A stretch of DNA of 64,000 nucleotides from Pedobacter terrae (GCF_036946585.1 NZ_JAQIIV010000013.1:27492-91491); one strand, 5' to 3'. Shown: positions 44,688 to 59,290, counted from the first letter of the stretch. Translations and numbers: made by a program. The notes: generated from the letters alone by a model not told the origin.

Positions 44688-45065
44688 AGCTCAGACGTTG
44701 CGGTCGATAGTTCAGACGTTGCAGTCAGTAGTTCAGACGTTGCGGTTGACAGTTCAGACGTTGCGGTTGACAGTTCAGAGGTTGCGGTCGATAGTTCAGA
44801 CGTTGCGGTCGGTAGTTCAGAGGTTGCGGTCGGTAGTTCAGAGGTTGCGGTCGATAGTTCAGACGTTACGGTCGATAGTTCAGACGTTGCGGTCGTTAGT
44901 TCAGACGTTGCAGTCGATAGTTCAGACGTTGCGGTCGAAAGTTCAGATGTTGCGGTCGACAGTTCAGGCGTTGCAGTCGGTAGTTCAGACGTTGCGGTCG
45001 ATAGTTCAGACGTCGCGGTCGATAGTTCAGACGTTTCGGTCGACAGTTCAGACGTTGCAGATGGT
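44688..45065. repeat. 21-bp tandem repeat x18, plus 1-2 degenerate units to ~45100
   Basis: Consensus AGTTCAGACGTTGCGGTCGAT counted unit by unit; no spacers. Confidence 0.95.
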
Positions 45066-45219
45066 AGTTTAGCGGTATTAGGAGATAGTTGAGGAGATGC
45101 AATGGGCCATTTTAGCGCTAAGCACTGCCTGAGAGAGAAATAGCCACCCGTTTGGCGCTTGTTAAATGGAAATAGGGAAATAAATTAGGGATGATTTTTT
45201 TTAGGGTATTATTGGTTGG

Positions 45220-45963
45220 TTATTCCAGCGATCGTACCGGAATACCCGAAATCTGTTTGTATTGGGGACTGGTTGAGCCGAAAACAGATTTTACGTAGTT
45301 TTTCACATCCTGTGCCAGGGCAACAATACCGGTTTCTGCATCGTACAGCGCGTTATTGCGGTTAATGCGGAGGGTGCTCAACTGCGAGGTATTGGCCACT
45401 ACATCACGGTTTTTCTGCAATAAGTCGTTATATAAAGTGGTGAGGCTTACCAGCTGCAAATCTACCTCGTTAGGGGCGTACTGCGGTATGGTGGCTAAGA
45501 GTTTAATCTGCTTATCCAACGTATCGAGCAGGTTATCGTAACTCTGTTGCGAAGCAGAAATCTGGTTAACCACCTTGCCGCTGGCGGCCAGGTTATTCTT
45601 TTCTTCGGCGGTGAGTTTGGCGGTTGCCCTTTGCCCCTGTATTTTGCGGTGGTGGCTAACGGCATTATCTAATACCTGTTGGGCTACACTGTTTGCCTTA
45701 ACTGCGCTGAGCACACGGGTACTTAGCTTTTTTAAGGGGGCAAAAGCCAGATCGCGTAGGGCTATGGCATTGCTGTTTTTAGCGGCAGCATCGTGCACCT
45801 GCTCGTTAATGGTTTTGGCTGCGGCGGCTTTCTCGGTTAAACTGCTCAACTGGATGTTGGCATTACTGGGGTTGTACACGGCGCCATAACCGGTTACATA
45901 ACTCAAAAGGGTTTCGAAATTGGCTACGTTTTTGGCGTGGCCTGTCTCATTTGTTTTAGACAT
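45220..45963 (-). CDS. Helical hypothetical protein (247 aa) upstream of the 21-bp array
   Basis: Clean ORF with AT-rich leader (ETGHAKNVANFE...YNPSN...SQQSYD...YVKSVFG.TSPQYKQI); no catalytic motif recognised. Confidence 0.85.
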   Translation of the reverse strand: MSKTNETGHAKNVANFETLLSYVTGYGAVYNPSNANIQLSSLTEKAAAAKTINEQVHDAAAKNSNAIALRDLAFAPLKKLSTRVLSAVKANSVAQQVLDNAVSHHRKIQGQRATAKLTAEEKNNLAASGKVVNQISASQQSYDNLLDTLDKQIKLLATIPQYAPNEVDLQLVSLTTLYNDLLQKNRDVVANTSQLSTLRINRNNALYDAETGIVALAQDVKNYVKSVFGSTSPQYKQISGIPVRSLE

Positions 45964-55613: not shown

Positions 55614-56933
55614 ATGATGACTAAACCATTTACAATTGCAGGGAAACCGATTTCGCGGTTTTATCAACTGCCTTTAGAAAAGGGGAGCAGGGTGTTAAGG
55701 TTAGCGGTTCTGGATGGGATAGCTAGCGATCCGATAGTAATCGGATTGCACAGCACATTTAGTGTAGGTAAAAAGCCTGAGCCCTTGGCCATACAATCGC
55801 TTTCTTTTGATCAGGGTTTGTTAACCGTTACTGTTAAATTGGGAGGGGAACAAGCAAAGGTTTACATCGCGGTAGAATACGATTGCCTGCTGGTGAGCTG
55901 TAGTATTGATACTGATGAAACCTACCTTGGGCGTTATGCTTACCTTACTTTGCGCGCCATGATGCGGGGCGGTTACTGCGATTTTCAACCATATTACTGG
56001 CCGGCATGTTTTGCTTTGGGCAACAAGCGATCGAGCTATGTAGATGTGGCTAAAAAACCTGGCGGTATTGCCATTACCTTGAAGAAAAAGTTTAGCGGTT
56101 TGTTTAGGACTGGTGATGATTTACCAGATGTTACGGAACGTACGGTAGTACCACGTGAAAGGCTTTCGGGTAAACAGGATATGGCACGCCTGGCACCGGT
56201 TAGCATTGGTTATTGTTTCGCCAATACCGATCTGCAGCATTTCCACACCAACCATTATCCTTTTTTAATTCCTTATGTTTTTGCGGCCACGGCTTACCTT
56301 AAAACGATTAAATCTTTTAAACGTTTCGTGTTTAATCTGCATGATGTGGATGGCATCAGCCTCTCGCCACAACAGGAGGAGCTGAACCGCATTTGCTTCG
56401 CCATGAAAGAGATCGCCGCCATACGCTTTAGTGCCAATGGTAACCTGACCGATACCACCGCCGAAGTTAATGCGATTAATGATGCCAACCAACTCGCCCT
56501 TTTTAAGTTATGGCACAAGGCTTTACCGCTATTGATGCAACAACGTTTTACCCATTACTTTTATACTTATGGCCTGCGTAATGTTACGGGCAAACCTGTA
56601 ATGCGCGATATGAAACTGGTCGAGTTCGCCATGGAGGTACCTGTTTTAAGTTTCGTGTTAAAGGATGAGGGCGATTATTATGAACTGCAGCTTGAAATTA
56701 AAGTGAAAGGGAAAAGTCTGCATCTGAATACGGATCAGCCTGGTCTGTTTTTGGTTTGCGATACCGCTAAACCGTATTTATGGTATTTGTTTGAGGCGGA
56801 AATGGATTATAAACTGGTATGGTTTTTTAGCCGGGTAAATTTTAGGGTGCAGGTGCTTAAAGGGTATTATAGGGAGTTTTTTGAGGAGTTTGTAGAGGGG
56901 GTGGGGAAGTGGTATGAAGTGAAGAGGGGGTAA
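55614..56933 (+). CDS. Hypothetical protein, possibly with a degenerate SWIM-like segment
   Basis: 439-aa clean ORF; LLVSCSIDTDETYLGRYAYLTL loosely resembles a SWIM region lacking most Zn ligands. Confidence 0.75.
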   Translation: MMTKPFTIAGKPISRFYQLPLEKGSRVLRLAVLDGIASDPIVIGLHSTFSVGKKPEPLAIQSLSFDQGLLTVTVKLGGEQAKVYIAVEYDCLLVSCSIDTDETYLGRYAYLTLRAMMRGGYCDFQPYYWPACFALGNKRSSYVDVAKKPGGIAITLKKKFSGLFRTGDDLPDVTERTVVPRERLSGKQDMARLAPVSIGYCFANTDLQHFHTNHYPFLIPYVFAATAYLKTIKSFKRFVFNLHDVDGISLSPQQEELNRICFAMKEIAAIRFSANGNLTDTTAEVNAINDANQLALFKLWHKALPLLMQQRFTHYFYTYGLRNVTGKPVMRDMKLVEFAMEVPVLSFVLKDEGDYYELQLEIKVKGKSLHLNTDQPGLFLVCDTAKPYLWYLFEAEMDYKLVWFFSRVNFRVQVLKGYYREFFEEFVEGVGKWYEVKRG

Positions 56934-56964
56934 AGGGGGTGTTTGTTTGCTGTATCACTAATAC

Positions 56965-59290
56965 GGTCGTCATTGCGAGGCACGAAGCAATCTTAATGCG
57001 CTCGCTATTCTTCCCCTAGCTCGGGCTTACCTCGGCTCACCGCCGCCGAGGGGCTTTTACCTTTTTCTTGATAAAAAGGTAACCAAAAATCAAGGCTTGC
57101 ATCGTTTTTTATGTGATCATGTTGTTTTTATTGGTGTAAAAGATTGCTACGCAATTCCTTGTAAAAAGCTACGGAAATCTTTATTGCGGCAGCATCAAGG
57201 CTCTTACCCTAGCTTTATTCCACCGCTCCCGCTTTGATCCTGCCTTGGGTTGTGGGGTAATGAGGGGGAACTGCAAAGATTTCCGTGCTTTTTCCGGCGG
57301 AAATCTGCGAGGCCAGATAGCAGGGTGCAGATAGCGTGGAGCATAAACATTATGCGTGGATCGATTCCTTTGGAACTATGAGGGGAACTCCCCTCCTGAT
57401 TTAGGAGGGGTGGGGGTGGTTATGAAGAGAATTCTCTTTTAGTCCTTTCCCTTTCAGGGGAAAGGTGCCGATAGGCGGATAGGGGTTTAAGGCGCTCGCT
57501 ATTCTTCCCCTAGCTCGGGCTTGCCTCGGCTCACCGCCGCCGAGGGACTCTTACCTTTTTCTTGATAAAAAGGTAACCAAAAATCAAGGCTTGGATCTGA
57601 TGTCGGATAAATTCGTCAAAGCTTTGAGGTCGTCAGCACAAGCCCCGATGAAGGATCGGGGAGGGCGTGCTGCCTCTGGGCAGTGATAAGTTGAAAGGAG
57701 GTGCAAAAGCTTTAACGTTTTCTCCTTCCATCATATCCTAGGCCGGTAGTAGGGTGCGGATAGCATGATGGCTGGTGATAGTTTCTAATATGGTTGTCGT
57801 TCTTCAATCAATAAATCCGTCATTCCCGCGCATGCGGGAATCTTAAAGCGGTTGCTATGCTTTGCCCTAGGCACTGTCTTGCCTCGGTTAGCCACCGAGG
57901 GGCTCTTACCTTTTTCTTGATAAAAAGGTAACCAAAAATCAAGGCTTGCATCGTTTTTTATGTGATCATGTTGTTTTTATTGGTATAAAAGATTGCTACG
58001 CAATTCCTTGTAAAAAGCTACGGAAATCTTTATGGCGGCAGCATCAAGGCTCTTACCCTAGCTTTATTCCACCGCTCCCGCTTTGATCCTGCCTTGGGTT
58101 GTGGGGTAATGAGGGGGAACTGCAAAGATTTCCGTGCTTTTTCTGGCGGAAATCTGCGAGGCCAGATAGCAGGGTGCAGATAGCGTGGTGCATAAATAGC
58201 ATTTATGTATTGATTCTATAAAACTACGAGGGGAACTCCCCTCCTGATTTAGGAGGGGTGGGGGTGGTTATGAAGAGAATTCTCTTTTAGTCCTTTCCCT
58301 TTCAGGGGAAAGGTGCCGATAGGCGGATAGGGGTTTAAGGCGCTCGATATTCTTCCCCTAGCTCGGGCTTGCCTCGGTTAGCCACCGAAGGGCTCTTACC
58401 TTTTTCTTGATAAAAAGGTAACCAAAAATCAAGGCTTGCATCCTTCCTTGTAAAAAGCTACGGAAATCTTTATTGCGGCAGTATCAAGGCTCTTACCCTA
58501 GCTTTATTCCACCGCTCCCGCTTTGATCCTGCCTTGGGTTGTGGGGTAATGAGGGGGAACTGCAAAGATTTCCGTGCTTTTTCCGGCGGAAATCTGCGAG
58601 GCCGGTAGCAGGGTGCAGATCGCATGGTGTATTAGGATAGTTTCTAATAGGGCGTTGTTTCACCGATAAATCCGTCATCTCGACCGCAGTGGAGAGATCT
58701 TTGAACTTTTCATAAACAGAGCCCGTCATTGCCGCGCATGCGGGAATCTTAAAGCGGTTGCTATGCTTTGCCCTAGGCACTGTCTTGCCCCGGTTAGCCA
58801 CGGAAGGGCTCTTTCTTTTCTCTTGATAGAAAAGAAACAAACCTGAGCGAAGCGAAAGCATGCCTACCATTGAAAACAACAACAAACAAGGCATAACTGA
58901 AAGGCTTGCATCGTTTTTTATGTGATCATGTTGTTTTTATTGGTATAAAAGATTGCTACGCAATTCCTTTTAAAAAGCTACGGAAATCTTTGTTGCGGCA
59001 GCATCGAGGCTCTTAGCCCTTGCTTTGTTCCACCGCGCTCGCCTTGACCCTGCCTTGGCCTGTGGGGTTATGAGGAGGGGTGCAAATATTTCCGTGCTTT
59101 TTCCGGCGGAAATCTGCGAGGCCGGTAGCAGGGTGCAGATAGCGTGGGGTAGACAGCGTGGTGCATAAATAGCATTTATGTATTGATTCTATAAAACTAC
59201 GAGGGGAACTCCCCTCCTAATTTAGGAGGGGCAGGGGGTGGTTATGGAGAGTATTATAAAGATCCTTTGCTTCGCTACTATTGAAAGCTC
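56965..59290 (+). repeat. Right mosaic repeat array: 5 copies of the long element plus REPs, same orientation as the left array
   Basis: Copies at ~57000-57344, 57490-57770 (variant core), 57845-58192, 58340-58630, 58750-59150; CTCCCCTCCT..TTTAGGAGGGG palindromes at ~57390, 58237, 59209. Confidence 0.93.

Follow-up and report, generated by a model that had tools for sequence, protein, structure and literature searches.

Several bacterial defence hotspots lack integrases, and homologous recombination through their flanks has been proposed to mediate their exchange (PMC10250203; PMC10121019), with lateral transfer through conserved flanks suggested specifically for the cDHS hotspots (PMC10250203); a further precedent has also been described (PMC3787668). 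An interval of the Pedobacter terrae genome, lying in a window (the whole stretch of DNA analysed) of 64,000 nucleotides, resembles cDHS1 and cDHS2 of Pseudomonas aeruginosa (Johnson et al. 2023, PMC10250203) and hotspot #37 of E. coli (Hochhauser et al. 2023, PMC10121019) in its conserved flanking genes, highly variable and defence-dominated content, atypical GC and lack of obvious mobile-element machinery. It is a core defence hotspot: its flanks are conserved, its content is variable and consists predominantly of defence genes, and it carries no hallmark genes of mobile elements. On the evidence of sequence comparison, the interval is best read as one filling of a hotspot that occurs in one Pedobacter subclade. 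Unlike the cDHS hotspots, the Pedobacter slot has an inner frame of genes (p247, HTH and p439) inside co-oriented, genus-specific repeat arrays, and the framed island also occurs at a second array-bearing locus, with array-only empty sites. Furthermore, the slots span 7-14 kb, compared to 1-224 kb for cDHS1 (PMC10250203).

Other described systems share some of these features. The minimal mobile elements of Neisseria are defined by differences between closest relatives in naturally transformable species (Saunders and Snyder 2002; PMC3787668), whereas the cargo variation in Pedobacter is seen between species; nor do the Neisseria elements lie within repeat arrays. A second parallel is the restriction-modification (R-M) unit that lies between long direct repeats, described as insertion with long target duplication, with a one-copy empty site in a related genome (Furuta, Abe, Kobayashi 2010, PMC2853133). 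However, the Pedobacter repeats form arrays of several units, and the dispersed element of which they consist probably predates the island, so that they do not look like a duplication of a unique target; the cargo can be any defence system, not only R-M. Integrons and tRNA-integrated islands likewise exchange accessory genes, much like cassettes, at a single position in the chromosome. An integron was rejected, as we found neither IntI nor any tyrosine/serine recombinase, no sites resembling attC or attI and no common cassette-junction motif. An integrase-borne genomic island or ICE was rejected for want of an integrase, a tRNA attachment site or att scars in or next to the island, and a composite transposon because neither array contains a transposase ORF and the single IS4 copy is strain-specific and lies on one side only.

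Table 1. Features of the hotspot and its surroundings, in window positions.
Feature	Position	Strand	Remarks
116-aa gene ('OB-fold' gene)	41815-42165	-	present left neighbour of left array
Left repeat array	42300-44686	+	5 full cores; ends with REP+CTTAATGCG
21-bp tandem array	44687-45058	.	17.7 copies (TRF); downstream of p247; part of conserved frame
p247 (247 aa), left frame gene	45220-45963	-	all-helical protein, no annotated function
p247 upstream region	45964-46060	.	conserved; left homology boundary of variable slot
Variable cargo slot	46060-55049	+	GC 0.34; ~9-kb defence-gene block
hsdR (type I R-M)	46152-48590	+	domain match
HNH/DGQHR protein gene	48592-50202	+	domain match
hsdM	50206-51630	+	domain match
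hsdS	51630-53531	+	domain match
Cas2-like	53650-53928	+	domain match
PIN_8	53930-54937	+	domain match
XRE-type HTH regulator	55054-55299	-	HTH_3; divergent from p439; semi-conserved right frame gene
p439 (439 aa), right frame gene	55614-56933	+	no Pfam match
Right repeat array	56960-59330	+	starts with REP+CTTAATGCG; 4 full cores and one diverged-subfamily unit (~57490-57770)
IS4-family transposase	59379-60857	+	NF033590, 2.2e-88; between right array and porP
porP/sprF and CHU_C T9SS-cargo gene	61033-63953	-	ancestral right flank of hotspot

The initial annotation had described an integrase-free defence island with an AT-rich R-M/PIN block, and both descriptions hold. Integrase, recombinase and transposase domains were not found in 44688-56965, nor was a tRNA or tmRNA, and an Rfam search of the interval gave no match. 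The GC content is 0.339 in 46000-55350 versus 0.388 in the whole genome that holds the window (G000). None of 17 other slots shares DNA homology with the cargo of G000. The hsdR-HNH-hsdM cassette of this cargo is also found in another genome (G148; 83, 94 and 89% amino acid identity), at an unrelated locus without arrays.

As anticipated by the initial annotation, cargo differs between species. We compared 18 loci from 17 species, most of them in draft assemblies and with one genome per species, using crude ORF calls (ATG, longest non-overlapping). The 18 slots, all of low GC (0.30-0.36), contained 140 ORFs that group into 105 protein clusters, of which 22 are shared. Their content is mostly defence genes, judged by family matches (Pfam, PADLOC): type I R-M, Mrr, McrBC, OLD/UvrD (Gabija-like), TIR/SLOG/MazG, Schlafen helicase, GmrSD, KwaB (Kiwa), ThsA_Macro (Thoeris), SLATT and RVT_1. 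Many slot genes are without annotation. Cassettes are shared mosaically between slots at 84-92% DNA identity, and the allele classes of the frame genes are discordant (~95% or ~79% for p247, three types of HTH and 66-86% for p439). For example, one island (G036) has a p247 that is 94% identical but a p439 that is only 66% identical. The discordant frame alleles and mosaic cassettes would fit homologous recombination. Turnover does not appear to be fast, since 24 contigs with identical p439 (P0013, P. suwonensis) all have one and the same cargo.

Alignment of the loci places the variable slot within a conserved frame. The order in the window's orientation is array, 21-bp tandem repeat, p247 (minus strand), variable slot, HTH (minus strand), p439 (plus strand) and array, and the inner frame of p247 and HTH-p439 was found in 13-19 loci. 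Sequence upstream of p247 is conserved for ~95-120 nt and then diverges completely (13-locus alignment), which sets the left swap boundary in this region (~46060); the right boundary is at the HTH stop (55049) or the p439 promoter (~55360-55390). The initial annotation had taken all of 44688-56965 as cargo. Only ~46060-55050 varies, the remaining ~3.3 kb being the conserved frame (21-bp array, p247, HTH and p439).

The left frame gene, p247, has no match in Pfam, NCBIfam or PADLOC. Its AlphaFold2 model is a helical bundle (pLDDT 88.5) with no significant PDB match. We identified 2789 homologues, the minority that are named all from Pedobacter except one labelled Agrobacterium tumefaciens, and in 12 other loci the protein is 77-97% identical and occupies the same position. 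The 21-bp repeat adjoins p247, in 8 to ~45 copies, in ten of the islands (G005b, G168, G050, G119, G152, G176, G092, G091, G074 and G036). The HTH gene has at least three allelic types: it is 93-95% identical in five loci (G005a, G013, G165, G176 and G001), and elsewhere the position holds a 36-39% identical type or a 132-137-aa HTH protein. The product of the right frame gene, p439, stands alone but is homologous to the N-terminal part (~430 residues) of certain long SNF2-family helicases. Among the 218 representatives in a profile search, three (890-1154 aa) carry SNF2-rel_dom after the p439-like part, followed by Helicase_C in the two that are full-length. There are 57 close homologues, all Pedobacter where named, and 65 of 201 Pedobacter genomes carry p439. 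The AlphaFold2 model of the protein is of mediocre quality and does not significantly match any PDB structure.

From their distribution, p247, HTH and p439 seem to behave as conserved anchor genes. They could instead form an active module, for defence or island maintenance, that recruits or stabilizes cassettes, with the arrays as a possible cis-acting DNA or RNA partner. Such a role would agree with the retention of p439 and HTH beside variable regions in two deep lineages, joined by a HEPN gene in the distant one, with the fusion of p439-like domains to SNF2 helicases, and with p247 paralogues that border other variable or defence regions. However, the frame proteins have no catalytic motifs, known domains or structural match, and nothing ties them to DNA transactions. 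Furthermore, 5 islands that are typical in other respects have no p247, and arrays are absent from the variable or defence regions beside the distant p439 homologues, as they are from those beside the p247 paralogues. We therefore regard an active frame as highly improbable.

Outside the frame are the two arrays of a ~181-nt Pedobacter repeat, in the same orientation on either side of the low-GC block. The array unit is modular, with a REP hairpin, a 'pre' hairpin module, the 181-nt core and a G-rich hairpin, and the left array includes a 352-bp unit repeated 2.8 times. All the full cores are on the plus strand, and those of the two arrays make up 9 of the 16 copies genome-wide. Four of the five left cores form a clade of their own in a tree of core copies, which suggests that the left array was amplified locally; exchange between arrays was not seen in this tree, which is poorly resolved. 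The arrays have a GC content of 0.48 versus 0.388 for the genome. The repeat is also found singly elsewhere, without an adjoining low-GC block. Across 17 loci, every one of the 57 cores is co-oriented with p439.

Reading of the junctions confirmed the array ends reported earlier. CTTAATGCG follows the REP hairpin at 44678-44686, with the 21-bp tandem array directly after it, and a REP hairpin with CTTAATGCG at 56992-57000 opens the right array. The junction 'CTTAATGCG/TAGCTCAGA...' is kept in four relatives (G152, G176, G092 and G091), and relatives also keep the p439/REP junction and the right array. Because both arrays and their island junctions are orthologous between species, the split of the array is old rather than a recent event in this strain.

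Empty sites and a second island locus bear on how the island came to lie between arrays. Two outgroup species have an empty site where the 468-aa gene is beside porP, with a single array in one (G015) and no detectable array in the other (G012); we infer the direction of gain or loss at these sites solely from the greater divergence of the two species. Pedobacter sp. D749 has a second island inside another array (locus 2), at an insertion point between the 3' end of a core and the next REP. The corresponding site in G000 (C22; MFS/GH25) has an array without an island and flanks that are colinear on both sides. The two sides of the D749 island match adjacent C22 segments (45699-46013 and 46062-46460) and not a duplicated segment. 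In the p439 tree, the locus-2 copy groups with those of two other species (G011 and G168), apart from the locus-1 copy of D749, which shows that this island was acquired horizontally; the two G005 copies are sisters. The array-only sites (G015 and G000 C22) are consistent with a single array that gained or lost an island. Hence the initial proposal of insertion into a single ancestral array finds some agreement at these sites, but any such split is old and shared between species.

Precise junctions could also be the work of an enzyme acting in trans, whether IS110-type, RAYT/Y1 or of another kind, that recognizes the REP hairpin with CTTAATGCG as the place at which to insert or excise the island. 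The island indeed begins exactly after this sequence, the right array resumes with it, and Y1_Tnp proteins are encoded in G000. Such an enzyme is nonetheless very unlikely. The G000 genome has no IS110 DEDD transposase, the locus-2 junction of D749 differs (core 3' end and next REP), and the locus-1 junctions, being orthologous between species, point to one old event and not to recurrent precise insertion.

A stronger competitor, unlikely but of appreciable weight, is that the arrays are bystanders, a MITE- or REP-like selfish element that piles up in long intergenic stretches of non-essential DNA, island borders among them, while all exchange proceeds via the frame genes and core flanks. Bystander arrays would explain slot boundaries in the sequence upstream of p247 and at HTH/p439, islands of p247 paralogues and distant p439 loci that do without arrays, growth by local tandem duplication, and single repeat copies with no low-GC block alongside. 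However, all 19 islands with a p439 of >65% identity have arrays on both sides with all cores co-oriented. Two empty sites have arrays only, so the arrays do not simply follow the islands. Furthermore, the horizontally acquired island lies inside a different array and not at a frame-homologous site, which fits a function of the arrays as homology arms.

Taken together, these features point to the dispersed repeat family as a homology substrate, and the locus is probably an integrase-free core defence hotspot in which cassettes are swapped by recombination in the frame and the whole island moves via the arrays. RecA-type homologous recombination after conjugation, transduction or uptake would replace cassettes piecemeal. 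Crossovers would fall in the frame (HTH/p439, and p247 with the sequence upstream of it) as well as in cassettes that donor and recipient have in common. The arrays would not be needed for this turnover because the slot boundaries lie outside them. The whole island would instead move as a unit: kilobase-scale, co-oriented arrays supply homology on both sides, so any array already present could take up a copy of array-island-array DNA, incoming or ectopic. If the two flanking arrays recombined with each other, the island would be deleted and one fused array left. The earlier suggestion that the arrays act as homology arms or swap sites is thus in keeping with the second island of D749 but not with the cassette boundaries, which are in the frame.

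A bolder version, which we consider rather doubtful, is that the arrays and the p247/HTH/p439 frame form a dedicated docking system, with the dispersed repeats as portable landing pads and p439 or the folded repeat DNA or RNA promoting or directing recombination. If so, complete islands could be captured, duplicated and moved between loci and species without a site-specific recombinase. How integrase-free hotspots are built and spread is stated to be an open question (PMC10250203). The Pedobacter locus is a natural experiment in this regard, with a small and sharply bounded slot, occupied and empty states at two loci and a horizontally acquired copy in a second array. If confirmed, exchange via frame and arrays would provide a testable mechanism for the movement of defence islands in Bacteroidota. 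It also offers a mining rule for new Pedobacter defence systems: search between p247 and HTH-p439, or within arrays.

Rearrangements, too, seem to have their breakpoints in the arrays, as at the left array of G000. The island of relatives is placed between the 468-aa gene and porP, with both flanks in at least 9 species. porP adjoins the right array in five loci (G011, G005a, G176, G127 and D749) and an array or an intergenic gap at three island-free sites (G010, G015 and G012). The 116-aa 'OB-fold' gene, which has no Pfam or NCBIfam match, had been taken as the left neighbour of the island, a position that is not ancestral. Four relatives (G011, G001, G013 and G010) keep the synteny epimerase-HAD-cNMP-PAP2-Vsr-OB and have 405-aa and 230-aa genes after OB, with no array, and homology to them stops at window position ~42290-42300. 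A rearrangement at the left array of G000 has replaced the 468-aa gene as left neighbour, and the comparison of the OB-to-porP interval across genomes, proposed earlier, fails for this reason. On the other side, G011, G176, G005 and D749 have no IS4 copy between array and porP. G000 has at least 6 copies of this element that are ~99.5% identical, and the one next to the right array is a recent insertion outside the island.

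The two co-oriented repeat arrays bracket a low-GC defence block in the host genome (G000, a 5.19-Mb draft, in which the window spans C13:27492–91491), as the initial annotation had observed, and the array landmarks it placed were exact, with CTTAATGCG read at 44678–44686 and 56992–57000. The repeat units combine a REP-like hairpin with a CTTAAWGC end, a ‘pre’ hairpin module, a 181-nt core and a G-rich hairpin, and 9 of the 16 cores of G000 reside in these arrays. The order between the arrays starts with a 21-bp tandem array and the 247-aa frame gene (p247, minus strand), continues with a type I R-M operon that encloses an HNH/DGQHR gene and with a pair of Cas2-like and PIN_8 genes, and ends with an HTH gene of XRE type (minus strand) and the 439-aa frame gene (p439). 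The GC content is 0.339 in 46000–55350 versus 0.388 genome-wide and ~0.48 in the arrays and p247. The interval has no integrase, transposase, tRNA or tmRNA and no Rfam family (gathering and E-value thresholds), which bears out the description of the island as integrase-free.

The slot (the variable cargo interval) is delimited by conserved frame sequences. Homology to relatives on the left covers the 21-bp array, p247 and ~95–120 nt upstream of the p247 ATG, ending near 46060. On the right, it restarts at the HTH stop (55049), or at ~55360–55390 where the HTH allele differs, and continues through p439 into the array. The initial annotation had proposed that cargo was put into one ancestral array. 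The integrase-free island, the variation of cargo between species and the existence of array-only sites agree with this interpretation, but the slot edges lie in the frame rather than at the arrays. Nor was a recent insertion into the array at this site borne out: the junction of REP-CTTAATGCG with the sequence beginning TAGCTCAGA is identical in four other Pedobacter genomes (G152, G176, G092 and G091); hence, the junctions between array and island are orthologous and must be old.

Orthologues of p439 (>65% identity) occur in ~19 of 201 sampled Pedobacter genomes. Core arrays flank every island on both sides (17 fetched loci and both islands of Pedobacter sp. D749), and all 57 full cores share the orientation of p439. 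Neither p247 nor the 21-bp array is present at five loci, which start with a conserved 272-aa gene instead. Frame alleles are discordant: in G036, for example, p247 is 94% identical but p439 only 66%, and the HTH comes in three types. The 21-bp repeat downstream of p247 (also at L041:16968–17898 and L043:3232–3805) varies from ~8 to ~45 copies across species, with a sequence ~85–93% conserved, and in five species the repeat joins REP+CTTAATGCG directly at its left end.

Cargo differs widely between species. Grouping the 140 ORFs of the 18 slots (7.1–14.1 kb; GC 0.296–0.357) at 40% identity gave 105 clusters, of which just 22 are shared. The 70 further slot representatives tallied include type I R-M subunits, GmrSD, RhuM, DUF4917, SLATT_5, ThsA_Macro, a C5 methylase and KwaB. 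Cassettes common to slots reappear in varied combinations at 84–92% DNA identity; one pairing a MazG-like protein with a Schlafen helicase is present in six loci. By contrast, 24 contigs with identical p439 carry one and the same cargo; turnover is seen between species only. No match to the G000 cargo occurs in any of the other 17 slots. The hsdR-HNH-hsdM cassette of this cargo is also found in G148, at a locus without arrays or frame, where the HNH protein is 94% conserved. The HsdS proteins of G000 and G148 share just 37% identity, suggesting that they differ in specificity. A two-gene unit of PfkB/nucleoside 2-deoxyribosyltransferase and QueC is found in three slots (D749 locus 2, L061:3795–7216; G127; G152), next to a reverse transcriptase (RVT_1) gene in D749, and may serve in defence through DNA modification or reverse transcription.

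Features of the window, with their positions, and slot contents in other Pedobacter genomes (a and b, two loci in one genome; locus 1, the site beside porP; locus 2, between the MFS gene and GH25)
Feature	Position	Strand	Description
Vsr endonuclease	41311–41814		very-short-patch-repair; adjoins the OB gene
Left repeat array	42300–44686	+	modular co-oriented units; 5 full cores
21-bp tandem repeat	44687–45058		17.7 copies
HNH protein	48592–50202		weak DGQHR-domain match; between hsdR and hsdM
HsdS	51630–53531		633 aa, unusually long
p439	55614–56933	+	conserved frame gene
Right repeat array	56960–59330	+	modular co-oriented units; 4 full cores
IS4-family transposase	59379–60857	+	just outside right array; not at this spot in relatives
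G013 slot			type I R-M unlike the host's; Mrr
G005a slot			YgjP, HsdR, McrBC, HsdS, HsdM
G005b slot			OLD-TOPRIM/AAA_15 and UvrD (Gabija-like)
G011 slot			MazG-like, Schlafen-helicase/GIY-YIG/S24, four TIR proteins, Nmad2, SLOG
D749 locus 1 slot			KAP NTPase, HsdR, NOV_C
D749 locus 2 slot			PfkB/Nuc_deoxyrib_tr, QueC, RVT_1

The flanks reveal occupied and empty states of the same site. The left array adjoins a 1066-aa/468-aa gene pair at eight loci (G011, G005a, G165, G152, G176, G092, G078 and G036) and, in part, in G003. The porP-CHU genes adjoin the right array wherever the right side was fetched (G011, G005a and G176), as they do at D749 locus 1, fetched on the right side only. Two more divergent species (G015 and G012) have the 468-aa gene beside porP and no island. 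Their 468-aa proteins are 88.5% and 84.8% identical to that of G000, compared with 90–98% in island-bearing genomes. The 468-aa–porP spacer is 1.8 kb in G015, with an array only, in the same relative orientation; it is 1.4 kb in G012, with no detectable repeat.

A second island in the complete D749 genome, at 3.06 Mb, lies between arrays flanked by an MFS gene and GH25. Contig C22 of G000 is colinear with both of these flanks and has a 0.8-kb array alone there (45641–46464). In the p439 tree, the D749 copy from locus 2 clusters with those of G011 and G168 (SH-aLRT 94–95) and the locus-1 copy falls near the base. The second D749 island was, therefore, acquired from a different lineage and inserted into an array other than that of locus 1. 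The two G005 copies of p439 are sisters, and the second thus resembles the product of an internal duplication.

These observations fit homologous recombination on two levels, as there is no island recombinase and no motif common to the cassette junctions, and the frame alleles are discordant. At one level, cassettes would turn over by homologous recombination through the frame genes and shared cassettes. At the other, the arrays would serve the gain, loss and relocation of whole islands. Insertion targeted to the hairpins of the repeat units is very improbable; G000 encodes no IS110 DEDD transposase, which speaks against an IS110-type inserter. The other core copies of G000 (C1, C6, C8, C15, C22 and C26) adjoin no low-GC 10-kb block. 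A tree of core copies resolved too poorly to tell whether the copies keep a left- or right-array identity or evolve in concert. RNAalifold on 57 core copies gave a weak consensus with invariant stems, no compensatory pairs and better folding of the reverse strand, and this analysis thus provides no evidence that the repeat is an RNA.

The locus agrees with core defence hotspots in the features tested (PMC10250203; PMC10121019). It also resembles the minimal mobile elements of Neisseria (PMC3787668) and R-M units with long flanking direct repeats and a single-repeat empty site (PMC2853133). Unlike all of these systems, it has a dedicated inner frame, lies within arrays built of a genus-specific dispersed repeat, and is found both occupied and empty at each of two loci. 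No integron, ICE, tRNA island or composite transposon fits an interval without integrase, transposase, tRNA or cassette-junction motif.

Neither p439 nor p247 has Pfam, NCBIfam or PADLOC hits, and AF2 models searched with Foldseek against the PDB gave no significant match. A profile search with p439 recovered resemblance only to the N-terminus of some SNF2 helicases. An active role of the frame proteins is, accordingly, a distant prospect beside recombination through their genes. The region of resemblance is the first ~430 residues in a small number of 890–1154-aa proteins (P0309, P0327 and P0297) with SNF2-family helicase C-terminal parts; the top Foldseek match for p439 is a weak one to ZorD, the SNF2 helicase of the Zorya system, at a non-significant E = 0.09.

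Paralogues of p247 (57–60% identity) lie divergently beside low-GC defence genes in P. endophyticus (L068, CP064939.1; MazG-like, Schlafen helicase, DUF4325 and PIN) and P. psychrotolerans (L067; AAA_21 and RloB), and p247-family genes may be markers of several defence hotspots in Pedobacter. Distant p439 homologues (44–49% identity; L052–L057, in G188, G181, G115, G201, G113 and G127 C27) follow an HTH gene (minus strand) and a HEPN-domain gene (plus strand), with a variable 3–10-kb stretch to the left and, beyond it, a conserved block ending with a DUF5712 gene. Core arrays are absent from both sets of loci; a hotspot as such, therefore, needs no arrays. That the arrays are bystanders is, for the island described here, rather unlikely, given their presence on both sides of every island.

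The synteny break at the left array is, from the gene order in relatives, a rearrangement in G000. Homology to relatives stops at ~42290–42300, the exact array start, and the ancestral neighbours of the OB gene (405-aa and 230-aa genes) are missing there. The 468-aa gene, ancestral left neighbour of the array, is on C8, where homology ends at C8:24962. A degenerate core fragment (C8:102466–102619) adjoins an N-truncated 230-aa gene, the two together spanning C8:102466–103409, and the 405-aa gene, located between OB and the 230-aa gene in relatives, is lost. Mobile elements elsewhere in G000 include two strong Y1_Tnp (IS200/RAYT-type) genes (C4:331360–331704 and C15:91100–91438) and the IS4 element, with at least six copies ~99.5% identical (the window's, C1:178321, C2:352461, C3:467108, C4:110552 and C14:59457), which has probably been active recently in this strain. 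The PAP2–Vsr spacing is ~1.8 kb longer in G011 and G001 (L035:6974–8784) than in G000, and the extra DNA may be a partner gene lost from G000.
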